From the NCBI GenBank assembly GCA_005110385.1, contig DUDT01000021.1:45420-109419 (forward strand): a stretch of 64,000 bases of DNA, written 5' to 3'. Positions 665 to 62,156 of the stretch are shown piece after piece. This DNA is from Candidatus Melainabacteria bacterium (lineage in GTDB: Bacteria > Cyanobacteriota > Vampirovibrionia > LMEP-6097). Made by a program: the position numbers and the translations under genes. Positions within the stretch are counted from its first letter, which is position 1, and every line of letters begins with the position of its first letter. Below the pieces are notes generated by a model that was not told the origin of the DNA, did no database searches, and was given only the letters and a program-made list of their open reading frames with translations.

Positions 665-785
665 GAGACCGCTGCACAACTCCATTTTCTGCGTTTTCGT
701 CGTCCTCATGATCCTCATGTACGTTAAGTACACTGCGGTCATTCGTCCTCCTCAGCCTTGAAACTGCACGTTGTGCAGCGGTCTC
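665..785. repeat. Full 121-bp palindromic element, copy A
   Basis: Perfect 16-bp TIR gagaccgctgcacaac (665-680) / gttgtgcagcggtctc (770-785). The 89-bp interior matches 62052-62140 in reverse orientation with 7 mismatches. Confidence 0.95.
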
Positions 786-798
786 GCTATGCTAAAAT
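771..798 (+). promoter_or_regulatory. Putative sigma70-type promoter for gatC-pyrG, with the -35 inside the repeat TIR
   Basis: TTGTGC (771-776), 16-bp spacer, TG-c-TAAAAT (790-798), 8 bp before the gatC ATG. Confidence 0.4.
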
Positions 799-806
799 CG
801 TAAGAC

Positions 807-1118
807 ATGAGCATTGAGAAAGAGCAAGTGCGGAAGATAGCTAACTTAGCGAAACTTTCATTAACCGAGGAAGAGCTTGATGAGCAGTCTGGAAACCTTT
901 CTAGGATTCTTGATTATGTAGCGACTCTAAGTGAAATGAATACTAAGAATATTCAACCTTTGACAGGTCCTCTCGATTTAGCACATGTCGTCAGAGAAGA
1001 TGAACCATTAGCTAGTTCTAAAGAATTACTAGAATCCATGATAGCTAATTTACCCGATAAAGAAGAAATTCAAGAAGGCATCGGTATTAAAGTACCTAAA
1101 ATGGTGAGTTCTAATTAA
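807..1118 (+). CDS. gatC: Asp-tRNA(Asn)/Glu-tRNA(Gln) amidotransferase subunit C
   Basis: [21 protein letters not shown]...ILDYV, VREDEP and VPK motifs. Confidence 0.93.
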
Positions 1119-1135
1119 GTTTAGGTTCTAAAAAG

Positions 1136-2812
1136 ATGACGAAGTATATTTTTGTTACCGGTGGTGTAGTAAGTAGTTTAGGGAAAGGTATAGTTTCTGC
1201 TAGCTTAGGTAGGTTACTAAAATCTAGAGGCTATAAGGTTTCTATACAGAAATTAGACCCCTATCTAAATGTAGATCCTGGTACTATGTCGCCATATCAG
1301 CATGGTGAAGTTTTTGTGACCGATGATGGAGCGGAGACAGATTTAGATCTTGGTCATTATGAGCGTTTTATTGACGAGAATTTACAGAAAAATAATAGTG
1401 TTACTGCTGGGAAAATCTATTCAGATGTAATCTCTAAAGAGCGTCGTGGCGAGTATCTTGGTGGAACAGTACAGATGGTGCCCCACGTTACTAATGAGAT
1501 TAAAGACCGTATTAGAAAGGCAGCTGAAAAGTCTTCAGCGGATGTTCTTATCGTAGAAGTAGGTGGTACTGTAGGTGATATAGAAAGTTCTATATTTTTA
1601 GAAGCTATAAGGCAGTTTAAGAAAGATGCCGGTAAAAATAACTCACTTTATATTCATGTCACCCTAGTTCCTAATATTAAAGTTACTAATGAGCTGAAAA
1701 CTAAACCCACACAGCATAGCGTAGAATTATTGCGCTCTAAAGGTATTCATCCTAATATACTCATACTCCGTTCTGAGCAGGATGTCCCAGAGAGCTTAAG
1801 AGAGAAGCTGAGCCTGTTTACTGATGTACCTTTTTCTAATATTATTGAAAGCTCAGATTGCACTAGTATCTATGAGGTGCCGCTAATGCTTGAGAATAAA
1901 GGTTTAGCGAATAGAGTTTTAGATGAATTAGGCTTAGAGAATAGTGAGCCTAATTTAACTAGCTGGAAGGAAACGGTTAGTAAAATTAAAAGTAAGCCAG
2001 ACCGTAAGCTGAGAATCGCTTTAGTCGGAAAATATATTAAACTGTCAGATGCTTATATATCTGTAATAGAGTCATTGAGGCATGCTTCTGCGGAGTTTGG
2101 CCAGCAGTTTGAGTTGGTTATGGTGCTTTCTGATGATATTAATTCGTTAGAAGATGCGAATAAGGCTTTAGCAGATATAGATGCCATCTGTATTCCAGGT
2201 GGTTTCGGAGATAGAGGTATAGAAGGGAAACTTGTCGCAATACAGTATGCTCGGCTCAATAAGATCCCTTTACTTGGCCTCTGTTTAGGTCTTCAGTGTT
2301 TAGTTATAGAATATGCTCGTAATGTCTTGGGCTTAGAGAACGCTAACAGTATAGAATTTAATACTCGTACGCCAGACCCAGTGATTCATTTGATGCATGA
2401 TCAGAAGAATGTCCAAGATAAAGGCGGAACTATGCGTTTAGGCTCATACCCTTGTCATTTGGTGACCAATACTAAAGCCTATGAAGCCTATCAGCGTGTT
2501 GGACAGCTATCAAGTAGTTCTGCTGGTGAACCTTTGATTAATGAAAGGCATCGCCATCGCTATGAATTTAATAATAAATATAAGAATATGCTTGAAGCGG
2601 AGGGTCTTAAAGTCTCAGGATTATCTCCAGATGCTTCTTTAGTGGAGATAGTAGAGATAGTGGATCATCCATTTATGCTGGCTTGTCAGTTTCATCCTGA
2701 ATTCAAATCAAGACCAGACAGACCTCATCCATTATTCTTAGCCTTAGTAGAAGCTGCGACTAAGATTAAGTCTGAGACTGCTATTGAATTTAAGAAAGAT
2801 CTTATTTCTTAG
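1136..2812 (+). CDS. pyrG: CTP synthase
   Basis: [37 protein letters not shown] and QFHPEF motifs. Confidence 0.99.
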
Positions 2813-2839
2813 ATTTTGGAGTTCGGCTACACGTCCATT

Positions 2840-5800
2840 TTATTCGACAGCTGCCTCCATTTCATATCTAGAAGTATCATTAATATATTTTTCCCAATCC
2901 CAGTTACTAGCTTCAAACATTTGCATAATGTAAAGTAGAATAGCTATTTCTTGAATGCTTTTTCCTTCTACCCCTATGCTACGTATGTTAGTTGTTTGAT
3001 CTGCTTTACTACTAAGTGCAAAATTAGCAAGAGTAGCACTAGGAATGGGGGTGGCTCCAGTGTATTTTGCGGGATTTATTGCGTCACCTATGCTACGACG
3101 CTCAGCCAGGATTTCTAATCTTAGGTTGGTATTAGGGTAGTTATTAGTACCGTAAGTAATCCCCATTCCAGCGTCTACTAAACTTGGGTGATTAGGGATA
3201 AGAGTAGCTGGATTCTCCGCTACTGCCTTGGCAATTAGTAGAGCATCAGGTATTCCACCAGTTTCACCCAGCAGATTTTTAATCATTATTCTATAGAGAC
3301 CCCCTTCTTTAGGACGCGGTGGTGCTGCTGCTTCTGCTGCTGCGAGTGCTGTGAGTAGAGTGTCAATGTTATTAACAATTTTTTCATAAGGATTAGCTAA
3401 GACTGGAACACCAGCTATAATCGTTCCGAAGTTTTTAAATGAGTTACTGCCGACACGGCTAGGTAGATTAGGAGGAACTGGCAAAGGAACTGGTTCGTCA
3501 TATGTAATTTCTGTTGCGGTATCGGTTCCAAAGATATTAACTCCAAAAACCGGTAAGTTACTGTTATCTAAAGGCCTACCAAAACGGTCTTGATTAGGAG
3601 GGATGGGAACAAGAACTCTAGTATCATTTGTGATAGCTGTAAATGCAAGACCAGTAGGATAAAAAATATTCTGGTGAAAATAATTCTTTAATTCTGATGC
3701 AGATAAATTCTCATCGATTCTTTGCCCTAAGCCTTTACCCGATGTTCTGAGATCATCAAGAGTTTCAAGTTTGCTTTTATTGACTACTACTGCTGCCCTT
3801 GAGGCTTTAAGAAAGGCGTTTATTGTCGAGGGGTCTGTACCACCACCTTCTTGAATATGGTCTAAGATATTTATATCTGCTTCAAGACTATCTTTTCCTC
3901 CTAAAGCACCATCGGCAATAACTGAGAAAGAGTTATTTTTTAACCATAGGTCAAAAACTTTAAGCTGTTGTTTAATGACGGGGCTTTTAGAGGCTTGCAT
4001 ATCTTTATAAACTTCATTTAAAGCAACAAGGAAATCACGAGCTTTTGTTAATCCAGATGTAGTACCTACCGTAGTAAACGGTGGAAAATCTCCAGGCGCT
4101 ATTTTAGTTGCTAATAATGCTTGTATATTCCAGCCTTGATTACCAGTTGTGGCTGGTGCTATATTAGGACCACTGATGGAAAGAGGGTTTGCTGGGTCTA
4201 AATATTGCAGATTAGCCTCATAGCCGCTGTATTGATATAATCCATCTTTAGGTGCACTAACTGGTCTATGCATTAAATCTATAATTTGAGTATCAGTTTT
4301 AATTTGTCTTCTATTAAATATCTTTAGTAATCCTGCTTCAAAATCATCACTTGTTGTTGTTTGATTTTCGATTTGAGTCAATAGATGAAGAGTCGAGTAG
4401 ACTTCTGATTCTGGTCCAGTTTTAGGTTTTTTAATTTCACTTGCTAAAGACACCTCTAAGGCATTTATATTTTCAGTTATTGGTGCTAATTCTTTTACGG
4501 TTGTGACTATGGCTTGAAACTCTGGAGAGTTGATAATGCCAGTTGGACTAGTGTCGCTAGCTAGAGATTCTATGTATTGCGTGAGAGTCTGAGCGGGAGG
4601 GGGAGGGGTACCAGGGAATACTAAAGCTGGAGTTACAAAAGCAGCGAGTGAAGGATTTTCCGGAGTACCACCAGAAAGTGTATTAAAAAGTACATTAAAA
4701 TGCTGCATTTTGCGAACATAGAGTTTTTTATTTTCGATGGTAAATTTACTATCTGCAGGAGGGCCAACAAATCTCATTTGAAATTCTAAGTCGCTTAAGG
4801 AATTAGGGAAGCCGAGATTAGTATCAGGATTAGTAGTAACATTACCAAGTGCGTCAAGATAGTCGCCTGCAGCATTGCGAAAAGCAACATCACCACCTGT
4901 AAAATCTTTATCACATCCCATTATTTCTCTCAGCGTGAAGGAGTCAGCTTTAGAGTTATCTACTGTACTGTTGAGGGCTAAGGGATTTGTTGATGCTGTA
5001 AGATCGTCAAGGCGAGTGATGGCTGGATTATTAATATCAGCGTCAGTGTCTGGAGGGTAAGCGTAAGTCGTTACAGGGCTGATCAGGTTTTTATATCTAA
5101 TGTGGTTTTTTATACCCGATGCACCCGTGAGAGTATAGCTATCTGGATAGGGCGGACCAGCTGCATCGGTTATTGGTTGTCCTTCTAGGAAAAACTCTAA
5201 AAGCTCTTTTCTTGCTGCTTTAATATCTGCTTGATTTGCAGGAGGGAGACTAGTAAGTGGTAATAAACCCACATCGGAATCAATAAGCCTCTGTTTTATA
5301 GTAGTTCTTTCTACTGCATCTAATTCTAATGGGTTAATGCCTGTCCAAACGGTGCTGAGGGGATTTTTAAGTTCAGTAAAATTAAGTTGAGCACGTGAAT
5401 TTAGTGAGAGTATTGGATCATTTGCTAGGGTGATATCTCTAGGAGGTGTTTCATTTTTGGCATTATTTAAATTGGTTTGAAAGTCACTAATAAAAGTCTC
5501 AATATTTCCAATATGTGTTTGGAATGTATCTATAGTGGTAATGCTCGTTAAATTAGATGGTAAAGCAGGAATCAGATTAGCTGGATCTAACGCACTGTAA
5601 GTGGTAGGAACAAGTAAATTACGATAAGGATTTAAAAGATTCGTTCTATCTAGATTGCTGATTAATACTTCACCAATCTTTTTTTGAGGGACGAGAATAT
5701 CTGAGATCAGTAAGCCATCCAGTAACTCTTCTCTCGCTTTTATAACAGCTTCGGCTTTCGCTCTATCAGCGGCGTTACCTCCGTCATCATCAGTTCTTAA

Positions 5801-11889: not shown

Positions 11890-12216
11890 ATGAGTAAACA
11901 AAATAATCATGAAAGTTATTTTGTTCTAGCCTGCCCAAGAGACGATGGCAGGCTCGCTGTTTTATGCAGGAATACTGGCCTGAATCAAGGGCCAGCACTG
12001 TGTGAAAGCAAAAAAGATGCGGTGCGTTTAAAAACCAAATTAGCTAACGATCCTCGCGGACTATCTAATGAAAATGCTGTCGCCATTATTAGAAGTCTTT
12101 ATGTTTACGAGTTGAAGCACGATGTAAAACCAGTCTGGCAGGAGGATTCACTATGGGCCTACCTACCAATAGAATTGGCCAAATGTGTAGAATCACAGGC
12201 TTTTTTTTCAAGATAA
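11890..12216 (+). CDS. Hypothetical protein (108 aa)
   Basis: ATG-start ORF with globular composition, divergent from the MNIO operon. No family recognised. Confidence 0.65.
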   Translation: MSKQNNHESYFVLACPRDDGRLAVLCRNTGLNQGPALCESKKDAVRLKTKLANDPRGLSNENAVAIIRSLYVYELKHDVKPVWQEDSLWAYLPIELAKCVESQAFFSR

Positions 12217-13703
12217 TTTTTAGTAGATTTAAAAATTGCGGCCGCCTCTTTTATATTACTGACCTCGATAATTTTTATTTTTAACTGTACTAAATTCGCT
12301 TTCAATTCTGGAGTTAAGGCTGGGATTATCGCTGTAGTGAAACCCAGCTTCTGAGCTTCTTTTAACCGCAGTTCTATATTACTAACTTGGCGAATTTCTC
12401 CACCTAGGCCTAGTTCACCCAGCGCAATAAAATCATTACAAGACTGCTCGCAAACTCCAATTTCTGCGTTTTCGTCAGGCTGCGCACAAACTCCAATTTC
12501 TGCGTTATCAATAGACGAATCAGGTTTTTCGAGTATTGAAAGTGCGATAGCCAAATCAGAACTTGGTTCTCTAATACTCAGCCCACCTGCAACATTTACA
12601 TAAACATCTTGCTTGCCCAAAGGTATTTTTAAATATTTTTCCATGATGGCTAATATCTGATGCAATCGGGTGAAATCTATACCGTTCGCCATGCGCCTAG
12701 GATTATGCTGCTCAGAATATATAACCAGTGACTGTACTTCCACTAATAAGGCCCTGCGTCCTTCTTTAATAACCGTGACTATGCCACCTGCACGTTGATT
12801 TAAAAAAATCTGTGAAGGATCGCTGACATCACTTAATCCATTTTCTCGCATTTCAAATACAGCTAATTCATCAGTGCTCCCAAAACGATTTTTAATCGAA
12901 CGTAGAATTCGCAAGGACTCATCTTTAATCATTTCGAACTGCAAGACAGTATCCACCATATGTTCTAAAATTTTCGGGCCAGCGATATCACCGTCTTTAT
13001 TTATATGACCGACTATAAAAATCGGCACATTGAAAGTCTTAGCGACTCTAGTAAGATTCGAGCAGCATTCTTTAATCTGCGACACATTACCTGGAACTGA
13101 ATCTAAATTAGGGTTATAAAGAGCTTGTATGCTATCAACTATGATTAAATTAGCTTCTGAGTTTTTAATCGCTTCAAGGATTTTTTCGAGGTTACTCTCT
13201 GTATAAACTAAAATATTCTCCTCATGTTGGGACTGCTCGCAAACTCCAATTTCTGGGTTTTCGTCGTCCTTATGATTTTTATTTAACCGCTTCGCTCGCA
13301 TCTTAAGCTGAGTAGAAGATTCTTCTGCGCTAACATAAAGCACTTTTAATTTTTTTAGACTGAAATAAAAAGCTAGCTGTAATAATAGTGTCGATTTACC
13401 GATACCCGGCTGACCGCCTATAAGATTTACGCTAGCGGGGACTATGCCACCACCAAGAACACGGTTAAATTCTTCTGAGCCTGTATTTAAACGAAGAACA
13501 GAGTCTTCTTTTATTTCACTTAAAAAGAGTAATTCTTCTTCTGAATTTACAAACAGACTATGTTTCACGCCTGTAGCTTTAGTTTTCGTTTTTACTAAAG
13601 CCTCTTTATCTAAACTACCCCAAGCTCCACAACTACTACACTGACCAAAGTAACCATTCGTCTCGTGGCCACAATTACGACAAACCCAGATGAATTTACT
13701 CAT
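12159..13703 (-). CDS. radA: DNA repair protein RadA/Sms carrying three in-frame repeat-derived inserts
   Basis: CxxC-CxxC, GGQPGIGKSTLLLQ Walker A, VDSIQ, KNRFG and Lon-like C-terminal domain. Confidence 0.97.
   Translation of the reverse strand: MSKFIWVCRNCGHETNGYFGQCSSCGAWGSLDKEALVKTKTKATGVKHSLFVNSEEELLFLSEIKEDSVLRLNTGSEEFNRVLGGGIVPASVNLIGGQPGIGKSTLLLQLAFYFSLKKLKVLYVSAEESSTQLKMRAKRLNKNHKDDENPEIGVCEQSQHEENILVYTESNLEKILEAIKNSEANLIIVDSIQALYNPNLDSVPGNVSQIKECCSNLTRVAKTFNVPIFIVGHINKDGDIAGPKILEHMVDTVLQFEMIKDESLRILRSIKNRFGSTDELAVFEMRENGLSDVSDPSQIFLNQRAGGIVTVIKEGRRALLVEVQSLVIYSEQHNPRRMANGIDFTRLHQILAIMEKYLKIPLGKQDVYVNVAGGLSIREPSSDLAIALSILEKPDSSIDNAEIGVCAQPDENAEIGVCEQSCNDFIALGELGLGGEIRQVSNIELRLKEAQKLGFTTAIIPALTPELKANLVQLKIKIIEVSNIKEAAAIFKSTKNYLEKKACDSTHLANSIGR
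12440..12506. repeat. Two tandem partial palindromic elements in frame in radA (NAEIGVCAQP-DENAEIGVCEQS)
   Basis: gactgctcgcaaactccaatttctgcgttttcgtc followed by ggctgcgcacaaactccaatttctgcgtt, both matching the left arm of copy A. Confidence 0.9.
13229..13276. repeat. Partial palindromic element in frame in radA (HKDDENPEIGVCEQS)
   Basis: gggactgctcgcaaactccaatttctgggttttcgtcgtccttatgat aligns ungapped with 665-712. Confidence 0.9.
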
Positions 13704-13718: not shown

Positions 13719-14939
13719 TCATGAAGTTCTTAATACCGACAATCTAAAATATTCAGAATATTCTGCCCCAAAGACTTTACCTGGTAGTATAAAGATCCCC
13801 TGCTCTATGAGTTCTTGAAAAAAATCTTCCACTCGGGACTGCTCGTAATCTTTATTTTCTGCGTTTTCATTAGCTAAAGAAGATAGTTTAGCGTTGGTTA
13901 AAGATTTTAAATTGTTTTTATTAGAGTTAAGTTTAGCAAGCATGCACAGCCCCCCAAAACTATCTCTAAGTAAATCTATAGAAGCCTCGCCCAAAAAGCT
14001 TTCCGAGGACTGGTCGCAAACTCGAGTATTCAAGCCCGCTTTAGTTAATTTTATTGCATAAGGATTTTCATAAATTTTATTTAACCCTCTTCTGATAAGT
14101 ATTTTCGAGTTTTCTAAAAGTACTTCTCTTTTATTTAAAGCTAAAACTGCGACTTTCTCACTTAAAATAGACGTTCTAAGAGAAAAATAACTTTTTTGTG
14201 CAAGGCAATCCTCAATTATTTTTTCGTCTTGCGTAGCTATCCAACCAACTCTCAATCCCTGTAAGCCATAGGACTTACTCACATCAGAAATACTTATCCC
14301 TTTTTCATAAATGCTTGCTACCGGAGGAGGCAAATTCAAGCAGATATCCCTGAAAACCTCGTCAGCAATTAAGTATCTGCCGTTAAGAATGTTTATTAGT
14401 TCTTTAAGTTCAAATTCGTTAAAACAGTAACCGCAGGGATTATTAGGATTATTAATCACCAAGGCTTTTACCTCAGGATTTTCACTAATTATTTTTTTTA
14501 AAGACTCTAAGTTAAGTTTAAAATCTTCCGCCCATTTAAAATCCCAATCAATCACTTTGCATCCCAGCCCTTCAGGTATCTTATAAAGAGAGGGATATAT
14601 GGGTTTCTGCACTATTAGGCTATCACCTAATGTAAATAAGCTTGAAAAGAGAAGGATAATAGCCTCAGCAGCTCCGCTGCTAGACAAGAACTTTAACTTG
14701 GGGTACTGCTTATAAATATTTTCAAGAGCTGAATAGAATTCTTCTAAACCATATTTCGAAGAATAATCTAGTTCTAGATTAACAAGGTCTTTTAATAAAA
14801 ATTCTTGGTCTTTTTCGTCATATAGGCTAAGCAGCTGATTAATAGTTAAGGGATTTAAGCAAGCAGTACTAAATGAAAAAAAGTAGTCCTTTTCGTAGGA
14901 GTTATATAAATCTTCTAGTTCAAAATTATTAAAAAGCAA
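13719..14939 (-). CDS. PLP-dependent aminotransferase class I/II with two repeat-derived inserts
   Basis: INNPNNPCG, IADEVF, SDVSKSYGLQGLRVGW (PLP Lys) and PGKVFG...FRLS motifs. Confidence 0.9.
   Translation of the reverse strand: MLFNNFELEDLYNSYEKDYFFSFSTACLNPLTINQLLSLYDEKDQEFLLKDLVNLELDYSSKYGLEEFYSALENIYKQYPKLKFLSSSGAAEAIILLFSSLFTLGDSLIVQKPIYPSLYKIPEGLGCKVIDWDFKWAEDFKLNLESLKKIISENPEVKALVINNPNNPCGYCFNEFELKELINILNGRYLIADEVFRDICLNLPPPVASIYEKGISISDVSKSYGLQGLRVGWIATQDEKIIEDCLAQKSYFSLRTSILSEKVAVLALNKREVLLENSKILIRRGLNKIYENPYAIKLTKAGLNTRVCDQSSESFLGEASIDLLRDSFGGLCMLAKLNSNKNNLKSLTNAKLSSLANENAENKDYEQSRVEDFFQELIEQGIFILPGKVFGAEYSEYFRLSVLRTS
13835..13871. repeat. Partial palindromic element in frame (NENAENKDYEQS)
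   Basis: 30/37 identity by manual alignment to the radA-type arm gacgaaaacgcagaaattggagtttgcgagcagtccc. Confidence 0.8.
14006..14037. repeat. Partial palindromic element, opposite arm, in frame (GLNTRVCDQS)
   Basis: aggactggtcgcaaactcgagtattcaagcc resembles gggacgattgccaaacgtacaagttcaaggc. Confidence 0.6.
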
Positions 14940-42431: not shown

Positions 42432-43784
42432 ATGGCATTTAGACAACTAAAAATTTTCACTTGGTGGAAGGGTAATAACAGAGAAAGGTTCCTACTTTTT
42501 GGAATTATTGCTGTTATATGGTTACTAATTACCGCCTTAGAGGAATTCGTCCCACAAAAGTTTCTAGATTTGCTTCCTTGTAATGTTTCACTCGCATTGC
42601 TCGCATTATTACTGCTATGCATGCTCTTTCACTCTGTTTTTCTTTTTATAGCGCAATATCATAGGCGTAAAAAGCCGAGAGAGCTAGATACCCAGTACTT
42701 TCCATCAATAGATATTTTCATTTCAGCTCATAATGAGAAGAACGTTATTAAAGAGACTTTAGAGTTTATGATGGATTTAAATTATAACGATTACAAGGTC
42801 TATGCCATTAATGATCGTAGTAACGACTCCACTCTTGACTTAATGAATTCAGTTGCAGTAAAGTATCCTGAAAAATTAATTATCTTAGATAGACCTGCTG
42901 ATGCAGTACCTGGAAAGGCAGCGGCTTTAAATGATGCATTAAAAATATCTAAGTCTGCGGTGATCTGTGTTTTTGATGCTGACGCTAGAGTCGAAAAAGA
43001 TTTCTTGCGAAACATAGTTCCTTACTTAAATGATCCATTAGTTGGTGCAGTACAATCCCAAAAAGTTATATCGAACCCAGAGAAGAATTTCCTCGTAGAA
43101 TGCCAATTCCATGAATATGCTATGGATACTTACTTACAGATGGGACGCGATAGCATCCGTGGTTCAGTAGAATTAAGAGGAAATGGTCAACTTATTAAAA
43201 GAGAAACTTTAGAACACGTAGGTGGCTGGAATGAAGATACTTTAACCGATGATTTAGACCTTTCTACTTGTTTGCATGTCAATGGCTGGGATATACGCTT
43301 TAGTCCTGAGAATAAAGTCTATGAAGAGGGTGTACCCACTATGACTGGTCTTATAAAACAAAGACGTAGATGGGCAGAGGGTAGTATGCGAAGATATCTA
43401 AACTATTTCTTGCAGTTACTAAAACCTGGTAATCTTACTCTAAATCAAATATTTGACACCTTCGTTTTCCTCTGCCAGTTTAGTATTCCTCTGTGGGTGA
43501 GTTTAGATATCATTTACGAATTTATTAGATACTTCTCTCATCGAGAGACTTATATCAGTTTCCTAATGCTGCTGAGCATATCTTTAAGTCTAATTATGTT
43601 TATGAATCAATTTCATGGATTAAGAATTTATAAACAATATTCGATAATTAAATCCATAGTTTACTCTCTAATTACAAATTTTTATTTCTTTGGCGTCTGG
43701 GTCACTATTATTATTATCACTTATAGAAAGATTCTATTTAGCCGTACAGTCGGCACTTGGGTAAGAACTGAGCATGGTGCTTGA
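42432..43784 (+). CDS. GT2 processive glycosyltransferase, similar to cyanobacterial monoglucosyldiacylglycerol synthase MgdA
   Basis: SAHNE, GKAAALN, FDAD, ELRGNGQ, TDDLDL and QRRRWAEG motifs with N- and C-terminal TMs. Confidence 0.8.
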   Translation: MAFRQLKIFTWWKGNNRERFLLFGIIAVIWLLITALEEFVPQKFLDLLPCNVSLALLALLLLCMLFHSVFLFIAQYHRRKKPRELDTQYFPSIDIFISAHNEKNVIKETLEFMMDLNYNDYKVYAINDRSNDSTLDLMNSVAVKYPEKLIILDRPADAVPGKAAALNDALKISKSAVICVFDADARVEKDFLRNIVPYLNDPLVGAVQSQKVISNPEKNFLVECQFHEYAMDTYLQMGRDSIRGSVELRGNGQLIKRETLEHVGGWNEDTLTDDLDLSTCLHVNGWDIRFSPENKVYEEGVPTMTGLIKQRRRWAEGSMRRYLNYFLQLLKPGNLTLNQIFDTFVFLCQFSIPLWVSLDIIYEFIRYFSHRETYISFLMLLSISLSLIMFMNQFHGLRIYKQYSIIKSIVYSLITNFYFFGVWVTIIIITYRKILFSRTVGTWVRTEHGA

Positions 43785-43785
43785 A

Positions 43786-43821
43786 GGCACTGTTGCCAAA
43801 CTCCAATTTCTGCGTTTTCGT
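43786..43821. repeat. Partial palindromic element, intergenic between convergent genes
   Basis: ggcactgttgccaaactccaatttctgcgttttcgt. Confidence 0.85.
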
Positions 43822-43825: not shown

Positions 43826-44908
43826 CTACAGTTCGCTATAAATCAGTGTTTTAAAAACACTTCCCTCTTCATGTAAGGCTAATGCTTTCGGCAGATCAGT
43901 TAAATCAAACTGCTCGCTGATAAGGTTTTTCATGCTTATCTTATCACTAGATATCAACTCCAGAGCAGCTTTAATATATTCAGGGCTATGATGAAAAACT
44001 CCTATAAGCTTTATTTCATCATAATGTAAGCGAAAAGTGTCTACCTGAATCGATGTACCTTTAGTACAGCCACCGAAATAATTTACTAGACCACCTTTTC
44101 TCACTAAGCTTAAACAGAGCTGCCAAGCTTCAGGCTTGCCCACTGCTTCTATCACGACATCTGCACCATATGGAAGAAGATTGTTTATTTTCACTTTAAT
44201 CTCCTCGTCAGATAAATTATTTATATCTACAAGAAAATCAGCTCCGTTATCCTTAGCTAAATCTAATTTATGTTGAGACCTTGCCACAGCGTAGATATCA
44301 GCTTTAGTAAAGAATTTAATTAATTTAATAAAAGTCTGCCCAATGGGACCTAAGCCATAGACTATAACCTTGTCATCATCTTTAATGTAAGACCTTTTAA
44401 ATCCATGCAGGGCAACGGCAAGGGTCTGCGTTAGGCATAATTCCTCAAGCTTATCTAGTCTAGAAACCTTGTATAGATTATGTTTAACAATGTTTTTCGG
44501 AATTTTAATATATTCGGCGAAGGCACCATTTAAAAATTCTAAATTCTCACAAAGGGAATATTCTGCTTTCTTGCAAAAAAAACATTCATAGCAAGGCGCA
44601 GTGTTAGCAGCTACTACATAATCACCTTGCTGAAAACCCGTTACAGAAGAATCTACTGACTCAATAACACCTACAAACTCATAACCAAAAGAGGATGGGA
44701 TATTTTTAATAATTTTAGGATGACCTCGCTGAAAGGTTTTTAAATCGGTACCACCTGTCCCAGCATATATAACTTTTACTAAAACTTCACCATCGAGTAA
44801 ATCGGGAATAATCACATCCTCTAACCTAATATCTCGCGGACCATAGTAAAGATAACTTCTCATTGTGCAACTTTCCTTAAAATTATTCGTCTTTATAAAC
44901 CTAGTCAA
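43826..44908 (-). CDS. MDR-family (Zn-dependent ADH-like) dehydrogenase with altered catalytic Zn ligands
   Basis: GGTD and GYE in place of CGTD and GHE. Structural CYECFFC...C and GLGPIG retained. Confidence 0.88.
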   Translation of the reverse strand: MTRFIKTNNFKESCTMRSYLYYGPRDIRLEDVIIPDLLDGEVLVKVIYAGTGGTDLKTFQRGHPKIIKNIPSSFGYEFVGVIESVDSSVTGFQQGDYVVAANTAPCYECFFCKKAEYSLCENLEFLNGAFAEYIKIPKNIVKHNLYKVSRLDKLEELCLTQTLAVALHGFKRSYIKDDDKVIVYGLGPIGQTFIKLIKFFTKADIYAVARSQHKLDLAKDNGADFLVDINNLSDEEIKVKINNLLPYGADVVIEAVGKPEAWQLCLSLVRKGGLVNYFGGCTKGTSIQVDTFRLHYDEIKLIGVFHHSPEYIKAALELISSDKISMKNLISEQFDLTDLPKALALHEEGSVFKTLIYSEL

Positions 44909-54680: not shown

Positions 54681-54717
54681 CCATATAATTTTGGAGTTAG
54701 ATTCCGAAATTATATGG
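54681..54717. repeat. Long hairpin between the ANTAR regulator and the ATPase gene
   Basis: ccatataattttggag-ttaga-ttccgaaattatatgg, a 16-bp stem with 2 G:T pairs. Confidence 0.7.
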
Positions 54718-54729
54718 TAAATTAACTTT

Positions 54730-55986: not shown

Positions 55987-56017
55987 AAAGCCTTAACCTC
56001 TTTACCTGACAGTCCGT

Positions 56018-56040
56018 GATGAAAAACGAGGTTTTTCATC
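56018..56040. terminator. Putative bidirectional terminator hairpin
   Basis: Perfect 10-bp stem gatgaaaaac-gag-gtttttcatc between convergent genes. Confidence 0.6.
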
Positions 56041-56042
56041 AC

Positions 56043-56975
56043 TTAAATTTCCAGCTCAATAAAATAACGAGGTCTATCCTTAACTTCCTGATAAAGCTTG
56101 CCGATATATTCACCGAGTATGCCGAAACACAGTAGCTGAACACCACCTATAAAATAAATAGAAATTATAATAGAAGCCCAGCCTGGGACCACCTCACCGA
56201 AAAGCTTAGAGTATAAGGCCCAGAGACCGATTCCCACTGAGGCAAGAATAGAAAGAAAGCCTAAACCACTTATAAGGCGTAAAGGCATTACAGAAAAAGA
56301 AGTTATACCATTCCAAGCAAAGGAAAGCATTTTATTTAATGGATATTTCGATTCACCAGCAAAGCGTTTCGATCTATCATAATGGACTATCGAATGCTTA
56401 AAACCGATCAAAGGAATTACTCCTCTTAAAAACATATTTATCTCACGAAATTCTTTTAAAGCCTGAATCGCTCTTCTACTCATCAGTCTATAATCTGCAT
56501 GATTATAGATGGTTTTAGTTCCCAGAAAGTTCATTAAACCATAAAATAACTGTGCTGTAGTTCTTTTAAAGAATGAGTCTGAGTCTCTCTGTTTTCGTGC
56601 CGCATAAACGATCTGGTCGCCCTGCAAATAGTTATCTAACATTTCACGAATAACATTAATATCATCTTGTAAATCAGCATCGATGCTGATTACGGCATCA
56701 GCATCGACACTAAATAAACCAGCTAGTAAAGCGTTCTGGTGACCGCAGTTATTTGAAAGCTTAATACCTTTAATATGCTGCGTTTCTTTACTTAAATCTT
56801 GAATCTGAGACCAAGTTTTATCGGCACTGCCATCATCAACAAAACAAATAAAACTAGAATCTGATATTTTAGCTGCTGTAATTAATTCTTTTAATAAATC
56901 TAAAAGACGAGAAGCTGTCTCTGTCAGAACTTCTTCTTCGTTATAACAAGGTACTACTATCGCTATTTTGGTCAC
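56043..56975 (-). CDS. GT2 polyprenol-phosphate glycosyltransferase (GtrB/YkcC-like)
   Basis: VVPCYNEE, VDDGS, GHQNAL, IDADLQD, two C-terminal TMs, GEYIGKLYQEVKDRP. Confidence 0.92.
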   Translation of the reverse strand: MTKIAIVVPCYNEEEVLTETASRLLDLLKELITAAKISDSSFICFVDDGSADKTWSQIQDLSKETQHIKGIKLSNNCGHQNALLAGLFSVDADAVISIDADLQDDINVIREMLDNYLQGDQIVYAARKQRDSDSFFKRTTAQLFYGLMNFLGTKTIYNHADYRLMSRRAIQALKEFREINMFLRGVIPLIGFKHSIVHYDRSKRFAGESKYPLNKMLSFAWNGITSFSVMPLRLISGLGFLSILASVGIGLWALYSKLFGEVVPGWASIIISIYFIGGVQLLCFGILGEYIGKLYQEVKDRPRYFIELEI

Positions 56976-57004
56976 AATGATAACTCATAAAAAACCTCTG
57001 TATA

Positions 57005-57020
57005 TTATGCAGCGGTCTCT
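57005..57020. repeat. TIR remnant of the palindromic element
   Basis: ttatgcagcggtctct vs ttgtgcagcggtctc. Confidence 0.55.
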
Positions 57021-57171
57021 ATGAGTATAATAGACTATCGAGACAGGGAGACAAAAAATTCTCAGATTATTATTTATCTTTCAAACTTTAATTGCTGCCA
57101 TTTCATGGCTAGCTTGGTTTATAGCAGCTCAAGATAGTAAACTCGGCTATTTCGTCCAAAAAAGTTTTTTC

Positions 57172-58773
57172 TTGCCCGTTCCGCTAGAGCAAGTTACCAA
57201 CCAAGTAGTTAATAGTTTTAGCCTCGCAGAATTTCCCTCTTGGTTAATCTGCTTGAATGACCTGCACGTACCTTCTGGCTATCAAGTCTTGAACCATTTA
57301 TCCATGCTGGTTTTCGTAATAATTTATGGCTTTATTTTCTTTAAGACTGTATTTCCTGATTTTAATTTTCTTCGAATCACATCCTTTACAGAAAAACAAA
57401 CCCCGTCTCAGAATGATCTTTTTTGGTTAATCGGCATAGCTTTTATTTCTACGCTTATGTTACCAGCTAATTCTTCTGATATATTTGGCTATATCTCTTT
57501 TGGTGAGCAGATAGTTCACTATGATCAGAACCCCTATAGTGAAATTTTAGCGAATATAGAAAACTGTCGTTTAGATCCACTATTGGGAAATATGCGCTGG
57601 GAGTATAATCCATCACCATATGGCCCTATTTTTACTTTAATTTGTAAATTTTTTGTTAACCTATCTTGGAATAATCTATGGCTTAGCTTTTTTATTTTTA
57701 AGATATTTAATTTTATCTGTTATTTATTACTTATTTATATTTTTCATCATACCTTGAAATACTTTCCCACAGTACACTGCGGTCATTCGTCCTCCTCAGT
57801 CTTGAACTTGCACATTCAGCAACAGTGCCCAGCGGGAACCTCTGATTCTGCTCAAAAAATAATGATCTGGAACACAGATAGAGTGTGGTATCTCGTAGCT
57901 TTAAATCCACTATTAATAATTCAAGGTCTCTGGAATGGTCATAATGACCTGCTTTTAGCCATATTAGCCTTCGCCCCAGTATTTTTCACGGTAAAAGCTT
58001 TATCATCAGAGGAAAACGCAGAAACTGTAGATGGCAAGCAGCCCCATGTTCTATTTAAATTTCTTAAACCTAAATACCTTAGTTTTAATTTAGCTATCTG
58101 CCTGCTAATCCTTTCTGTTTTAATAAAATATATAACGATTATTTTAATACCCTTACTGTTACTGTGGATTTGGAAAAGAGAACGCTACATACCTTATTAC
58201 GGCTTAATTACAGGGATTTTCTGCTTCTATTTTTCTTCTCAGTATTTTAATTTATTTAACATCGATTATACAGAAATCTCTAATAATGCAACTCTCTTTC
58301 ATAAATCACTTTTTGATGTGATTAACACAGTATTTAAATTAATCACTAAGGCAGATCTACCTAAGTCTGCTGTTTTAATCTCACTTGCAGCCTATGCCTT
58401 ATTTTATGCTTATATATTTTTTAAACTCTTTTTCTCTAAGACAGGTAAGAAGCAGGATCATGAGGACGATGAAAACGCAAAAATAGGAGTTTCCGAGCAG
58501 TCCCTTGATATAAGCTTTCTTAAAAGCCTAAGCTTAGTTTATGCTGTTTTACTTTTAATAATTAGTCCTAAGTTTCATTCTTGGTATTTAATTTCCCTTT
58601 TACCTTTCGCAGCGATATCTCATCCTCGCTGGTGCTTTGCTTTAAGCCTCGGGCATTTACTGTCCATAACTTTTATAGATCAGGCTCATATTTTAAATTA
58701 TCTACTGATGACGGTGCTGCCGGTGGCGCAGACATATTTTTACGATTCTTACCTACGCAGAAACTATTTCTAA
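57172..58773 (+). CDS. GT-C-type membrane glycosyltransferase (MptB/DUF2029-like) with three repeat inserts. The frame is open upstream to 57034.
   Basis: SSDIFGY, NPY, PSPYGP, LNPLL...NGHNDL, IKY and WY motifs in a multi-TM protein. Divergent from the GtrB-like gene. Confidence 0.8.
   Translation: MPVPLEQVTNQVVNSFSLAEFPSWLICLNDLHVPSGYQVLNHLSMLVFVIIYGFIFFKTVFPDFNFLRITSFTEKQTPSQNDLFWLIGIAFISTLMLPANSSDIFGYISFGEQIVHYDQNPYSEILANIENCRLDPLLGNMRWEYNPSPYGPIFTLICKFFVNLSWNNLWLSFFIFKIFNFICYLLLIYIFHHTLKYFPTVHCGHSSSSVLNLHIQQQCPAGTSDSAQKIMIWNTDRVWYLVALNPLLIIQGLWNGHNDLLLAILAFAPVFFTVKALSSEENAETVDGKQPHVLFKFLKPKYLSFNLAICLLILSVLIKYITIILIPLLLLWIWKRERYIPYYGLITGIFCFYFSSQYFNLFNIDYTEISNNATLFHKSLFDVINTVFKLITKADLPKSAVLISLAAYALFYAYIFFKLFFSKTGKKQDHEDDENAKIGVSEQSLDISFLKSLSLVYAVLLLIISPKFHSWYLISLLPFAAISHPRWCFALSLGHLLSITFIDQAHILNYLLMTVLPVAQTYFYDSYLRRNYF
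57771..57829. repeat. Half palindromic element in frame (VHCGHSSSSVLNLHIQQQC)
   Basis: agtacactgcggtcattcgtcctcctcagtcttgaacttgcac matches the right half of copy A. Confidence 0.92.
58009..58045. repeat. Degenerate partial element in frame (EENAETVDGKQP)
   Basis: 30/37 identity to the radA-type arm by manual alignment. Confidence 0.7.
58454..58504. repeat. Half palindromic element in frame (DHEDDENAKIGVSEQS)
   Basis: aggatcatgaggacgatgaaaacgcaaaaataggagtttccgagcagtccc matches 62106-62156. Confidence 0.9.
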
Positions 58774-59604
58774 ATCAGGAATATTTTTAATTTTTTCAGC
58801 TAAGAGCTTAGCCATTTTATTAGCTTGCTTAGCGTTCTCTAGGTAAAGATTATTAGATAAGAGTTCTAGAAACTGGGCTGAAATGAAACGCATTTTAGAA
58901 GCGAGCTGCATTCCTTGCTTTCTTCTGTATTTAAAACCCTTTGCTAGACTAGCATCCTTAAAGATAATCGCTTCACCTAGTAACATGCCATTTTTAGTAC
59001 CACCAAAAGATAGTAAATCTACGCCCAGATCGAAACTTATTTCTTTCAAGCTAAGACCCAAGCTAGCAGCCACATTTGATAATCTTGCACCATCTAGATG
59101 TAACAGCATGGCATGTTCATGAGCTAAATCGGCTAAAGCCTTGATCTCATCAGGTTTATAAACAGTTCCTAATTCTGTAGAATTAGCGATAGAAATAACT
59201 TTAGGCTGGGAATTATGCTGATTATCGAAGCCTATTAAATGTGGCTTAATAAGTGCTGCTGTGAGCTTACCATCTGTGGTTTTAATAGTAGTAAGTTTAG
59301 CTCCAGTAAAGAACTCTGGTGCGCCACACTCATCTACATAAAGATGAGAAGTATCTGCACAGATTATAGAATGATAAGACTCTGTAACTGAGGCGAGTCC
59401 AAGAACATTAGCAGCAGTACCATTAAACACGAAGAAAATTTCTCTATCAGAGCCGAAATGCTCTTTAAATTTAGTTATAGCTGTTTTAGTAAGCTCATCA
59501 GCACCATAAGCTGAAGCATGAGCTAAATTAGCTTTTACGATAGCATCTAAAATTTTTGGGTGAATCCCTGAATAATTATCGCTAGCGAAGGATTTTAGAT
59601 TCAT
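58753..59604 (-). CDS. ltaE: Low-specificity L-threonine aldolase, apparently C-terminally truncated (283 aa)
   Basis: FASDNY, VFNGTAAN, HLDGAR, SFGGTKNG (PLP Lys), RKQGMQL. The last ~60 aa typical of the family are missing. Confidence 0.8.
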   Translation of the reverse strand: MNLKSFASDNYSGIHPKILDAIVKANLAHASAYGADELTKTAITKFKEHFGSDREIFFVFNGTAANVLGLASVTESYHSIICADTSHLYVDECGAPEFFTGAKLTTIKTTDGKLTAALIKPHLIGFDNQHNSQPKVISIANSTELGTVYKPDEIKALADLAHEHAMLLHLDGARLSNVAASLGLSLKEISFDLGVDLLSFGGTKNGMLLGEAIIFKDASLAKGFKYRRKQGMQLASKMRFISAQFLELLSNNLYLENAKQANKMAKLLAEKIKNIPDLEIVSA

Positions 59605-59713
59605 TGATTTAGCCTTTACCTAAGACTATTGTAAACTAGGAAGTCTTAGTGGGCTTACTTGAGAATTTCTTTAGATGATAGAAGAGTTAAAAAATTTAAG
59701 CGGTGAAATTCTT

Positions 59714-59808
59714 CAAACTTCAATATTTCTGTAACGGGTAATATTATTCCCGTTGCGGAAATATTATTACCAGAGAACACTGTATAACTGCGTTTTCGTT
59801 GTCCTCAT
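59714..59808. repeat. Split element arm (59714-59724 and 59788-59808) interrupted by a different hairpin (59722-59765)
   Basis: caaacttcaat ... ctgcgttttcgttgtcctcat flank aatatttctgtaacggg / cccgttgcggaaatatt. Confidence 0.6.
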
Positions 59809-59850
59809 TTATGTTTGGTACATTTTTAGTAATTAAGTTTTAAAAATTAG

Positions 59851-60408
59851 TTACTCTTGAGCTTCATGAAATGAATTAATAATAGCTCCCGTCGTAATTG
59901 GTCCTTGCCTATCAGCCAAACTAAAAGCATATGTTAAAAGCGCTTTAACCTGTGCATCTGCTCCATCTAACGGCATTACAGCCTGTTTTCCTAGTTCTAT
60001 TTCACGCTGAGAAACTTTCCCTGAACTAGGTTCAGCTCCTCGACTAGCACGCTCCATTAATTCTACAAACTGCGCCTGAGCTTCTGTACCATCTAAGAGA
60101 AGAGCTGTGACGTGAGCCTGTATAGTATCTTCACCCCCAACTCGCCCTTTTTTTTCTACACTTCCTCTAGAAAAACCATTAGTGGAAACGATATTATTTT
60201 CAGCCATCATTCCAAGCAAAGCTTGACCAGCTGCTGCTTCAGGTTTTCCACTACCATTTACAGTGGCACCGTTTCCTAGAATTTTAGAACCCTTTCCTTG
60301 CGCTACTGGAGCTGAATTTTCTGAAACTTTGTCAGGCGCTTTAGCTTTATCAGCTCCTCCTATCTGCATTGATAGATTTTTTATATTATCTGGTCCTTGC
60401 ATGAACAT
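59851..60408 (-). CDS. Hypothetical protein (185 aa)
   Basis: ATG-start ORF with a Gly/Ala/Ser-rich N-terminal half. No family recognised. Confidence 0.7.
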   Translation of the reverse strand: MFMQGPDNIKNLSMQIGGADKAKAPDKVSENSAPVAQGKGSKILGNGATVNGSGKPEAAAGQALLGMMAENNIVSTNGFSRGSVEKKGRVGGEDTIQAHVTALLLDGTEAQAQFVELMERASRGAEPSSGKVSQREIELGKQAVMPLDGADAQVKALLTYAFSLADRQGPITTGAIINSFHEAQE

Positions 60409-60725
60409 CTTAATTACTTCCCTCTCTGCCTATATAAAGTATGTTTTTCTTACATTTGACAAAAGTTTTTAACCTCTTCTTAACTTTTCCCCAAATTTTG
60501 AACTAATTCTTCATTGAATCATTCATCTAGTTTGGTTCTTTTGTTGGATTTTCTATAATAACACAGGATTATTAAGAAATGATTAAGAACTTAAAAATAA
60601 TATTCCCAGAAATAATATGTCTATAACATTTGCATTTATACCCTGAATCCATCATGATAGAAAATGAAAAGAAGTAAAATAATCCTATTTAAAGCCTCTG
60701 GTTTTAAAATACGAACATTACAATC

Positions 60726-61976
60726 ATGTCCCGCACCTATAGAGACCCTATTCATCAAGAAATCACTTTAAATTCCGCAGATAGGGTAGAAGATCTGCTT
60801 ATTAGACTTATAGATACTAGAGAAATGCAGAGGCTTCGCTGGATAAGACAGCTTGGCACGGGTTGGCTCACTTATCATGGTGCAGAAGGCTCACGTTTTC
60901 AGCATAGCCTCGGAACTATGCATGTGGCTAGAAAAATGTTCGAGCAGCTTTCTGATTCACTTCTAGACTTAAGTCCAGAAACCCTAGAAAGATATAAAGC
61001 TTTAGTTTTAGTCTCTGCTTTATTACATGATGTCGGGCATGGTCCTTTTAGCCATAGCTGTGAAGAGGTCTTGGAAATTAGGCATGAAGACTTTACGCAG
61101 AGAATTATTTTAGATAATAGTACTGCCATTAATAAAACCTTGAGGAGCTTTGATAGCAGTCTGCCTGACGAGGTTTCATCAGTATTAAATAAAACTCACC
61201 CCGTGAAATTTTTATCTAACATAGTAAGCAGTCAGATAGATGCTGATCGCTTTGACTATCTTTTAAGAGACAGCCACTTCACTGGAACTAATTATGGAAA
61301 CTTTGATTTAGCGAGAGTTATCAGCAGCATTACCTTAAATAAAGAGCATGACTGTTTAGCTGTCTTTAATGGTAAAGGGCGTCTCGCTGTCGAGGACTAC
61401 CTTTACGCTAGATATTCTATGTATCTTCAGGTTTACCTGCATAAAAAGTGCTTAGCGAGTGATGTTATGTTTAAGAAGCTCTTTGAGCGTGTGAAACTGC
61501 TGCTTGTCAGTAAGAAAATAGCTTTTCTAGAACAGAATCTATTTAACTGGCTTAGTAAAGGAATGAATATAGATATTCAGGATTTTATCGAAATAGACGA
61601 TACTACCATCTGGCATCATATTAAACATTGGGTGCATGAAAAAGATAATATTCTCAAAGATCTAGCTAGAAGATTTTTAGAAAGAGATCTTTTTAAAGCC
61701 TATCAATTTAATAATGAAGAAGAGTTTCAAAGCCTTAAGCAGAATGCTCTTGCAAAGCTAAAGCTCAGAGATATGAATCCTGAATATTACATAGATAAAA
61801 TTAGCATTGCAGCTAAGCCCTACAGCTTTTATAATCCAGATAAAACTAATTTCTCGAAAGCTATTTTCGTTCAGGATCAGGATTCTAACGAACTTAGAGA
61901 AATATCAGAAGTCTCACCGATAGTAGATAGTATGGTCAAGAATAATTTTCAAAATCAATATCTGATTAGTATTTAA
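60726..61976 (+). CDS. HD-domain phosphohydrolase (dNTPase/YdhJ-like)
   Basis: RDPIH, QRLRWIRQLG, HGAEGSRFQHSLG, LLHDVGHGPFSH, IDADRFDYLLRD. Confidence 0.93.
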   Translation: MSRTYRDPIHQEITLNSADRVEDLLIRLIDTREMQRLRWIRQLGTGWLTYHGAEGSRFQHSLGTMHVARKMFEQLSDSLLDLSPETLERYKALVLVSALLHDVGHGPFSHSCEEVLEIRHEDFTQRIILDNSTAINKTLRSFDSSLPDEVSSVLNKTHPVKFLSNIVSSQIDADRFDYLLRDSHFTGTNYGNFDLARVISSITLNKEHDCLAVFNGKGRLAVEDYLYARYSMYLQVYLHKKCLASDVMFKKLFERVKLLLVSKKIAFLEQNLFNWLSKGMNIDIQDFIEIDDTTIWHHIKHWVHEKDNILKDLARRFLERDLFKAYQFNNEEEFQSLKQNALAKLKLRDMNPEYYIDKISIAAKPYSFYNPDKTNFSKAIFVQDQDSNELREISEVSPIVDSMVKNNFQNQYLISI

Positions 61977-61978
61977 AT

Positions 61979-62024
61979 AAAAACGCAGAAATTGACGAAA
62001 ACGCAGAAATTGAAGTTTGGCAAC
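61979..62024. repeat. Two tandem partial element arms just before copy B
   Basis: aaaacgcagaaatt followed by gacgaaaacgcagaaattgaagtttggcaac. Confidence 0.85.
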
Positions 62025-62035
62025 TATCTCACGAA

Positions 62036-62156
62036 GGGACGATTGCCAAACGTACAAGTTCAAGGCTGAGGAGGACGAATGACCGCAGTGTACTCAAGGT
62101 ACATGAGGATCATGAGGACGACGAAAACGCAGAAATTGAAGTTTGGCAATCGTCCC
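62036..62156. repeat. Full 121-bp palindromic element, copy B
   Basis: Perfect 16-bp TIR gggacgattgccaaac / gtttggcaatcgtccc. Interior is 82/89 identical to copy A. Confidence 0.95.

Follow-up and report, generated by a model that had tools for sequence, protein, structure and literature searches.

Two copies of a 121-bp palindromic repeat lie near the ends of the window

The window analysed here is a stretch of 64,000 nucleotides (C21:45420-109419) from the genome of a Candidatus Melainabacteria bacterium, a 1.91-Mb assembly of 25 contigs with about 36% G+C (hereafter G000; its contigs carry C numbers), and near each of its ends it holds a full copy of a 121-bp palindromic repeat. Copy A occupies positions 665-785 on the minus strand, between recR (2-661) and gatC (807-1118), has A-type arms (GAGACCGCTGCACAAC / GTTGTGCAGCGGTCTC) and scored 150 bits on model R1. 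Copy B (62036-62156, plus strand; 150.7 bits) has the arms GGGACGATTGCCAAAC / GTTTGGCAATCGTCCC and lies between an HD-domain gene (60726-61976) and ilvC (62198-63217). The two copies are 90% complementary over 105 nt. At the centre of copy A stands the hairpin GTGTAC-TTAAC-GTACAT (717-733, minus strand), which is the core that is invariant across phyla; its counterpart in copy B is GTGTAC-TCAAG-GTACAT (62088-62104, plus strand). A preliminary description of the window had reported both full copies, and our searches returned them at exactly the same positions. The core that it quoted, CCGCAGTGTAC-N5-GTACATGAGGAT, occurs twice in the window versus 0.00 times expected from shuffles, and the peptide that it gave for the end-to-end open strand of copy A is indeed the translation of that copy.

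An iterated nhmmer search of G000 returned 193 matches genome-wide, comprising 59 near-full copies, 110 right ends only and 23 left ends only, so the family lies far beyond chance. The host had been guessed to be a member of the Melainabacteria, in agreement with its nearest public genomes, which are metagenome-assembled genomes (MAGs; all genomes compared here are MAGs) of the Vampirovibrionia/Caenarcaniphilales: Deming_bin.154, REEB446, WB4_1_1465, RE-15aug16-7 and samp_4445_VAMB_679. The element is abundant in 6 of 6 congeneric genomes and was not seen in 14 genomes from elsewhere in the class, which represent other genera, families and orders. When an exact interior 23-mer was searched against one genome per species (GTDB), all of the matches listed fell in five congeneric MAGs. 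Sister genomes are denoted below by G numbers.

The element combines variable, paired arms with a nearly invariant interior

The alignment of full copies in G000 resolved the element into two inverted-repeat arms of 16 nt each, an interior of 89 nt that hardly varies and, at the centre, a 6-bp hairpin of the pattern TGTAC-N5-GTACA with a variable 5-nt loop. The minor-allele fraction was lowest in the interior (0.040), intermediate in the arms (0.285) and highest in the loop (0.485). Among 54 ungapped copies there were 35 distinct left arms, and 42 of the 54 had no more than two (0-2) mismatches between their arms. Arm cells were paired in 95.9% of cases, versus 77.6% after shuffling and 25-53% in slid controls; 14 of the 16 arm pairs carried changes on both sides, with complementarity retained within copies. 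Either strand folds into a long imperfect hairpin (z about -6.5 to -8). The element holds no gene: it is small (121 bp), multicopy and without coding capacity for a transposase. An Rfam scan of the window copy gave no credible match, and the consensus peptide matched no Pfam or NCBIfam family. A hammerhead-like reading of the motif CUGAGGA...GAAA was rejected by eye, since both segments of the would-be stem II are purine-rich. An origin of the arms in the target DNA, with the core as the sole mobile part, was rejected as well, since a given arm type is found at many loci and is accompanied there by linked variants of the interior.

A second small element was observed inside the first. It is about 70 nt long (ATTTC[CT]AGCGATGCCGAG...AAGCT), is associated with a TA duplication and was seen solely inside the GTAC arms of the 121-bp element's hairpin. 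All five copies in G000 occupy the central hairpin (at C12:86416-86600, C14:263378-263562, C11:52581-52765, C6:56157-56306 and C24:12121-12300). The G005 orthologue of the 121-bp copy at C17:13552-13672 carries an independent insertion of this element, and G006 has a different insert of about 100 nt in the same central hairpin.

Target duplications and a partner insertion sequence point to a transposon moved in trans

The flanks of the element bear the mark of staggered insertion. An imperfect 5-bp direct repeat was found in G000 solely in the register that abuts the 121-nt unit (z about 6 versus permuted pairs). For copies in the sister genomes, flanks agreed at a mean of 2.93 of 5 positions in the 5-bp register, versus 1.3-1.65 in neighbouring registers; exact flanking 5-mers were present at 8 of 46 copies versus 0.48 by permutation, and agreement at four or more of the five positions at 17 of 46 versus 3.4. 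Comparison with empty sites gave the same length: AGGAA stands on both sides of the C17:13552-13672 copy in G000, G004, G005 and G006 and is single in G002 and G001, which are free of the element there, while copies in sister genomes are flanked by TAGAA and AAGGT, each of which is single at the corresponding site of G000. With a 5-bp duplication and a length of 121 bp, each insertion therefore adds 126 bp, or 42 codons.

The preliminary description had seen no transposase in the window. This is correct, and a matching element of the IS5/IS1182 type was found elsewhere in the genome and in the sister genomes. This insertion sequence (IS) is 1154 bp long in G000 (C12:103263-104416) and encodes a frameshifted transposase with DUF772 and DDE_Tnp_1 domains; the best NCBIfam models were IS1182 and IS5, which scored below cut-off because the open reading frame (ORF) is fragmented. 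Its ends in G000 are GAGACTGTTGCCAAT and GGCACTGTTGCTTAAT. The IS is multicopy in sister genomes, where left ends numbered at least 10 in G001, at least 12 in G003 and at least 22 in G006, mostly at contig breaks; a contig of G003 (C15) holds just a 211-bp left-end remnant. The left inverted repeat GGGACTGTTGCCAATCC was identical at 10 junctions and the right inverted repeat GGCACTGTTGC[TC][CT]AAT at 11. These ends, GGGACTGTTGCCAAT on the left and GGCACTGTTGC on the right, match one arm type of the 121-bp element, GGGACTGTTGCCAAAC and GGCACTGTTGCCGAAC. The 11-mer GG[GC]ACTGTTGC occurs 25 times in G000, nearly always at ends of the 121-bp element and once at the IS end. The IS likewise duplicates 5 bp, CTATT, as seen from the filled site in G006 (...CATCTATT|IS|CTATTAAAA...) versus the empty site in G000 (...CAT[CTATT]AAAA...).

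The hallmarks of a MITE (miniature inverted-repeat transposable element) were thus found in one family: terminal inverted repeats in the form of the 16-nt arms, a 5-bp target-site duplication established against empty sites, a small non-coding multicopy body (121 bp, 193 matches in 1.9 Mb) and an autonomous partner with the same ends and duplication length, the close match being confined to D-type arms. We conclude that the repeats are, with good probability, copies and remnants of a 121-bp non-autonomous transposon moved in trans by an IS5/IS1182-type DDE transposase. This transposase is the most likely mover; supplied in trans, its DUF772 and DDE_Tnp_1 protein would act on the MITE ends and duplicate a 5-bp target. 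The assignment was made on the usual grounds of shared ends, equal duplication length and co-occurrence, and a comparable one links the MITE RUP to IS630-Spn1 (PMC2229807). Like MITEs with a known IS partner, the present element shares IS ends and duplication length, is non-autonomous and multicopy, and inserts into the IS. It differs from classical MITEs in that its arms vary and covary and its interior is conserved, which is the reverse of the usual pattern, and in that length plus duplication is a multiple of three with one frame open.

Several observations weigh against this assignment. The likeness between MITE and IS is confined to about 14 terminal nucleotides, with nothing shared beyond them, and just one type of IS end was seen. 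From a transposase that recognises a specific sequence one would expect much less variation than the arms show, yet they remain complementary. No intact contiguous IS was recovered; the copy in G000 is frameshifted and the sister copies end at contig ends. A recognisable duplication is retained in just about 17-37% of copies and in neither copy of the window, the flanks of copy A being without a recognisable 5-bp repeat.

Two neighbourhoods of the IS were also recorded. At G003:C13, about 206 nt into the IS left end, a 121-bp element is inserted within its putative parent, after ...TTTTGAGTCAT. At G006:C198 (L052 230-700), just upstream of an IS insertion, three tandem units of about 110 nt, apparently decayed tRNA-like copies, lie beside an intact-looking tRNA.

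The element shares an architecture with RPE1 and with similar elements in other phyla

The preliminary description had pointed to a very similar core in RPE1, a palindromic element of Rickettsia (Ogata et al. 2000, summarised in PMC2229807 and in PMC10969869; model TIGR01045 of NCBIfam). The core that it gave is real: it was found in many Rickettsia genomes, and one such copy scored 72.7 bits on TIGR01045. In these reviews the target duplication of RPEs is listed as unknown and no transposase is assigned to them (PMC2229807, PMC10969869), and RPEs are described from Rickettsia and Wolbachia (PMC3767692). We found no paper on RPE-type elements in Melainabacteria, and none containing the core as a sequence string in the sense of an element.

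The core, written as CCGCAGCGTAC-N(1-9)-GTACGTGAGGAT, was present at no fewer than 120 loci, in Rickettsia, Tisiphia, Holosporales, Rikenellaceae, Chlorobium, Nitrospirota and Peribacteria, and further in Desulfovibrio, Alkaliphilus, Entotheonella, Serratia, Pseudomonas and others. The window core and the RPE1 core, ACCGCAG[C/T]GTAC-loop-GTAC[G/A]TGAGGAT, are identical at 21 of 23 specified bases, and the two changes, C to T and G to A, make up one compensatory pair. Both elements are palindromic (about 105-146 bp), dispersed and non-coding on their own; both have covarying arms, a single stop-free frame and frequent in-frame insertions in conserved housekeeping genes. They differ in that the window element is 121 bp long, ends in GGG/GAG...CCC/CTC and makes a 5-bp duplication, while RPE1 is about 146 bp long and TA-ended; in the phylum of the host; in the frame in which the left half is read; and in that an IS partner with matching ends can be named here, when none is known for RPEs in the literature examined.

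This likeness could have arisen by convergence or by capture of a short module, so that an independent MITE would share merely the 23-nt hairpin with RPE1, an explanation that we regard as possible though rather unlikely. The differences in length, ends and left-half frame speak for it, and so do the sequence-only comparisons outside the core. TIGR01045, the model proposed earlier as a check, matched neither any frame of the consensus nor the six-frame translation of the genome; nhmmer models of the two halves without the core found nothing at E<0.01 and gave weak right-half matches at a constant register (E 0.1-0.7); and a DNA profile of RPE1 gave 0 matches in G000. The RPE link thus held at the level of DNA and architecture, through the core and a covariance model, and failed at the level of the peptide. 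The failure of the peptide model follows from the loop, which has 5 nt here versus 6 nt in RPE1 and shifts the left half.

Against convergence stand, first, the position of the core, which is central in both elements, and the single compensatory pair that separates the two versions. Second, alignment with RPE1 copies showed similar arm starts (AGACC.CT.GCA.AAC), a left word TT.AAGG and a right word GCAGAA.T.G.GTT; beyond the loop, on its right-hand side, the two elements share a reading frame (AE[VI]x[FV]), which gives VRED...AEVEF in RPE1 and VHED...AEIGV in the window family. Third, a covariance model built from G000 copies alone gave matches that span model positions 1-121 and measure 120-123 nt. 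Scores reached 55.7 bits in Chlorobium, 54.9 bits in a Rickettsia endosymbiont, 47-54 bits in Rikenellaceae, 44 bits each in Peribacteria and Holosporales, 31-36 bits in Alkaliphilus, Nitrospirota, Desulfovibrio and Entotheonella, and 26-45 bits for RPE1 copies. A match to the core only is worth about 24-26 bits, and several lineages gained 18-30 bits beyond it; 151 kb of unrelated control loci yielded no match. Across 31 covariance matches the 16-bp terminal stem was 92% paired with 16 of 16 pairs double-changed, versus 25-49% in slid controls, figures from a model-fitted alignment that leans towards structure. The 5-bp duplication was not visible around the Chlorobium, Rikenellaceae, Peribacteria and Rickettsia copies.

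We conclude that the window family belongs to a cross-phylum group with RPE1-type architecture, and we consider common descent with RPE1 to be likely. A candidate mobiliser for RPE1 itself also emerged. The Tisiphia genome with RPE1 copies holds 35 copies of a DUF772 IS with a 440-aa transposase (L323 1216-2851), whose ends, TAGTCTCCCCGTCAAAAGT, appear to resemble the RPE1 arms TAGACTTCCTGCAAAAGT of the same genome; this IS is possibly the mobiliser of RPE1. Single copies of the RPE1-type central hairpin were in addition seen in many proteobacteria. The core of Serratia silvae (L257 988-1015) lies between dnaN and recF and that of Pseudomonas after a solute-binding protein gene, with no common neighbour between the two contexts.

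One of these copies, from Pseudomonas delhiensis (L262 4239-4314), coincides on the opposite strand with the Rfam small RNA (sRNA) family sX9, at 44.2 bits versus a gathering threshold of 44. The sX9 model (RF02228) covers the central hairpin and one half of such an element on the opposite strand, and the Xanthomonas consensus shares the T-A hairpin variant with the window element. Unlike the latter, sX9 is described solely as a transcribed sRNA without an assigned function; it is among the 20 most prevalent Rfam sRNAs, again with no function given (PMC9029176). Window copies fall below all Rfam thresholds, and the copy compared with sX9 did not match even at E<=10. These data suggest that sX9 'sRNA' loci are halves of palindromic elements of this kind, and the covariance matches suggest that many annotated sX9 'sRNAs', together with unannotated hairpins, are one mobile family.

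A wider synthesis is tentative and in our view has the smaller chance of being right: RPE1, sX9 and the Caenarcaniphilales element may form one ancient cross-phylum superfamily of hairpin transposons of about 121 nt, moved by DUF772-DDE transposases of the IS5/IS1182 type, with ends set mainly by complementarity rather than by sequence and with the invariant hairpin ACCGCAGYGTAC-N5-GTACRTGAGGAT as a functional module, such as a binding or processing site. If true, 'protein-coding palindromes' of the RPE type would gain their first mobiliser, along with a mechanism that can be tested.

Insertions within genes almost all lie in the one open frame

The element was next considered as a source of protein sequence. 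Only one of the six frames of its consensus is free of stops, reading GTARKRASSRLRRTNDRSVLKVHEDHEDDENAEIGVCEQS, and the other five contain stops. Copies within ORFs of G000 lie in the strand and phase of this open frame in 19 of 19 full and 61 of 63 partial cases; the same was seen in five sister MAGs (580 kb) for 41 of 41 full copies, 34 of 34 right ends and 8 of 9 left ends. Pieces of the element are present in about 80 ORFs of G000, including gltX, valS, glyS, lexA, trmD, murQ, pepA, photolyase, radA, an AcrB-type pump and rbgA.

The earlier view of a selfish element that adds peptide segments to proteins gained support from this single-frame use, from GltX orthologues and from an alignment of RadA. 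GltX carries 35-42 extra residues that are missing from more distant Caenarcaniphilales and other relatives; close relatives have at this site, always in frame, the complete element, a stump of 28 nt or just a right arm of 16 nt. When RadA was aligned to the solved S. pneumoniae RadA (5LKM), the fragments appeared as extra residues. Tandem arrays at C12:2132xx, C14:1055xx and C18:1111xx repeat with the length of the insertion unit, 121 + 5 = 126 bp or 42 codons. Insertions into genes would be tolerated solely in the stop-free strand and phase, with others purged by selection, and the tolerated inserts would probably sit in surface loops. In-gene inserts are presumably translated into peptides.

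Small palindromic repeats that fuse in frame with genes are known from RPE, ERIC, the 107-bp form of Correia and YPAL. RPE goes furthest among them, its 19 insertions within genes having first been reported from R. conorii (PMC2229807, PMC10969869). ERIC, the 107-bp Correia form and YPAL (PMC2229807) differ from the window element in showing no sequence relation to it, in being mainly intergenic and in having far fewer cases in housekeeping genes. As selfish DNA that writes itself into proteins, RPEs are a textbook oddity. In the literature examined they are treated as a peculiarity of Rickettsia and Wolbachia (PMC2229807, PMC3767692, PMC10969869). The same behaviour is found here at equal or higher density (about 80 ORFs in 1.9 Mb) in a free-living lineage of another phylum. 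What the present data add to the knowledge of RPE-type elements is an identified partner IS that duplicates 5 bp, a rule of 42 codons and a link across phyla. The 121 + 5 sum offers a simple rule for the survival of gene insertions, and movement and readability of the RPE type become testable by experiment in E. coli. The findings bear on genome annotation and on the origin of new protein loops.

Copies are reshaped after insertion, with a slowly changing interior

Orthologous sites recorded what happens to a copy after it has landed. Every congener has an element at the site of copy A, in a state that differs from genome to genome: the forms in G003 and G001 are reduced to 50 nt, and G001 has a further partial copy besides; the G004 element is chimeric, one of its arms being of the D type and the other of the A type; and in G006 the interior is inverted and accompanied by a deletion. 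At the site of copy B, G001 and G004 keep the right end only, and no element is present in G003 and G006. A deletion between stacked right-end repeats can turn the G000 state into that of G001. At C14:276477, a C-type copy is inserted so that it abuts the right end of an older A-type copy, which still has its full length in a sister genome and is reduced in G000 to its right end. Reshaping would accordingly proceed by duplication across the 5-bp repeats into tandem arrays with a 126-bp period, by internal in-frame deletions, by flips of the interior and by new insertions abutting old right ends. Such reshaping accounts for many right-end fragments and explains part of their excess, not the size of the 110:23 ratio; the excess is also present in intergenic DNA of G000 (43:11). 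The possibility that right-end fragments are mini-elements with a hidden left arm was dismissed, as a complementary upstream arm was found for just about 6 of 110.

Substitution rates were taken from six pairs of orthologous full copies, G000 versus sister genomes, and from one gene. Over the six pairs, divergence was 1.2% (5/432) in the interior, 2.6% in the arms, 8.3% in the central stem, 33% in the loop and 7% in the mostly coding flanks. The interior within gltX differed by 7.4% versus 10-17% at the third codon positions of the gene. The interior is thus steadier than its surroundings, through either selection or gene conversion among copies, and gene conversion would also account for the apparent hyper-variability of the loop. 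At any one site the arms are stable; their diversity, in which complementarity is preserved, therefore originates among paralogous copies, either while the element spreads or between such episodes. Arm pairing may be enforced by a folded intermediate, by template switching on the quasi-palindrome or by a requirement of the transposition complex.

Alternative explanations for the spread of the element

These patterns in the arms bear on a different mover. A structure-specific activity on the folded single-strand hairpin or cruciform, which would recognise paired ends irrespective of their sequence along with the invariant interior and central hairpin, could mobilise the element in place of an IS5/IS1182-type transposase. 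In that case the resemblance of one arm type to the IS ends would be coincidental or due to later capture. Strong covariation of the arms around a fixed interior speaks for such an activity; the same stem-plus-core recurs with unrelated arms in many phyla, and arms that are stable at orthologous sites and differ among paralogues imply that the pairing constraint acts during spread. The 5-bp staggered duplication, however, is of the kind that DDE transposition typically makes and has the length of the IS duplication, and the terminal 11-15 nt are identical to the IS ends. No candidate of the HUH/Y1 type turned up, in searches none of which was aimed at one. We hold this explanation to be unlikely.

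Somewhat less likely still is that the 121-nt unit serves the host chiefly as a functional structured module of RNA or DNA (for example an sRNA, a 3'-end stabiliser or a protein-binding hairpin), its invariant core being maintained by selection on the host, with mobility and gene insertions as side effects. The invariance of the core across phyla and the low divergence of orthologous interiors (1.2% versus 7% in the mostly coding flanks) fit this idea, as does the identity of the Pseudomonas copy with sX9, a transcribed sRNA in Xanthomonas that is very widespread (PMC9029176) and that a transposon-sequencing preprint reports as non-disruptable (10.1101/2023.08.03.551896). Copy numbers in the hundreds per genome, sites polymorphic for presence or absence, fast decay through deletions and coding-sequence insertions confined to one frame are instead typical of selfish spread, and gene conversion among copies could explain the conserved interior and the fast loop equally well.

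The in-frame tandem 126-bp arrays and the recurrence of the peptide in many proteins might suggest a protein repeat or domain of 42 residues that recombination has carried from gene to gene. This reading is refuted by the location of more than half of the full copies in intergenic DNA and by the target duplications, and it also sits poorly with the terminal inverted repeats and empty sites, a peptide without a Pfam or NCBIfam family and nucleotides conserved at all three codon positions.

Remnants of the element in the window

The window was searched for further pieces with a profile built from the genome copies (cut-off E<=0.034). At least 15 partial copies had been claimed, nine of them within coding sequences. 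The fragments are real and so are the pieces within ORFs, though both counts came out lower: the profile search returned 11 partial copies, of which 7 lie inside long ORFs, 3 in radA, 1 in an aminotransferase gene and 3 in the ORF at 57172-58773.

Within radA (12159-13703), two adjoining right-end fragments at 12442-12509 (minus strand) are in frame, read ...DNAEIGVCAQPDENAEIGVCEQS... and correspond to extra residues versus RadA 5LKM. A right-half fragment at 13231-13285 (minus strand), also in frame, reads NHKDDENPEIGVCEQS and appears as a 17-residue insertion versus 5LKM. The adjacent class I/II aminotransferase gene (13719-14939) has a degenerate right-end fragment in frame at 13837-13870 (minus strand; E 0.003). 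Outside genes, a right-end fragment at 43789-43821 (minus strand) lies between the convergent genes for a glycosyltransferase (42432-43784) and an alcohol dehydrogenase (43826-44908). Two stacked right-end fragments, AAAAACGCAGAAATTG followed by ACGAAAACGCAGAAATTGAAGTTTGGCAACTATCTC, occupy 61979-62030 (plus strand) upstream of copy B, from which ACGAA separates them. A very short possible remnant, ATGAGGACAACGAAAACGCAG, was found in intergenic DNA at 59788-59808 (minus strand) and is borderline (E 0.026).

The ORF at 57172-58773 (plus strand) encodes 533 aa without a Pfam match and contains three pieces of the element. The left half at 57766-57826 is in reverse orientation (minus strand) and is a rare case of a piece within an ORF off the usual strand; a weak right-end fragment at 58009-58042 (plus strand; E 0.0012) and a right-half fragment at 58454-58502 (plus strand) are in frame. 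This ORF may have been built largely from remnants of the element or heavily remodelled by them.

Elsewhere in G000, one copy of the element (C14:210192-210312) stands in a cluster of near-identical direct repeats of about 100 nt (...TAATTTAATTTAAAAAAATGGCGGAGACGAAG...). The cluster adjoins an apparent tRNA gene on the opposite strand, and these direct repeats may be tRNA-linked.

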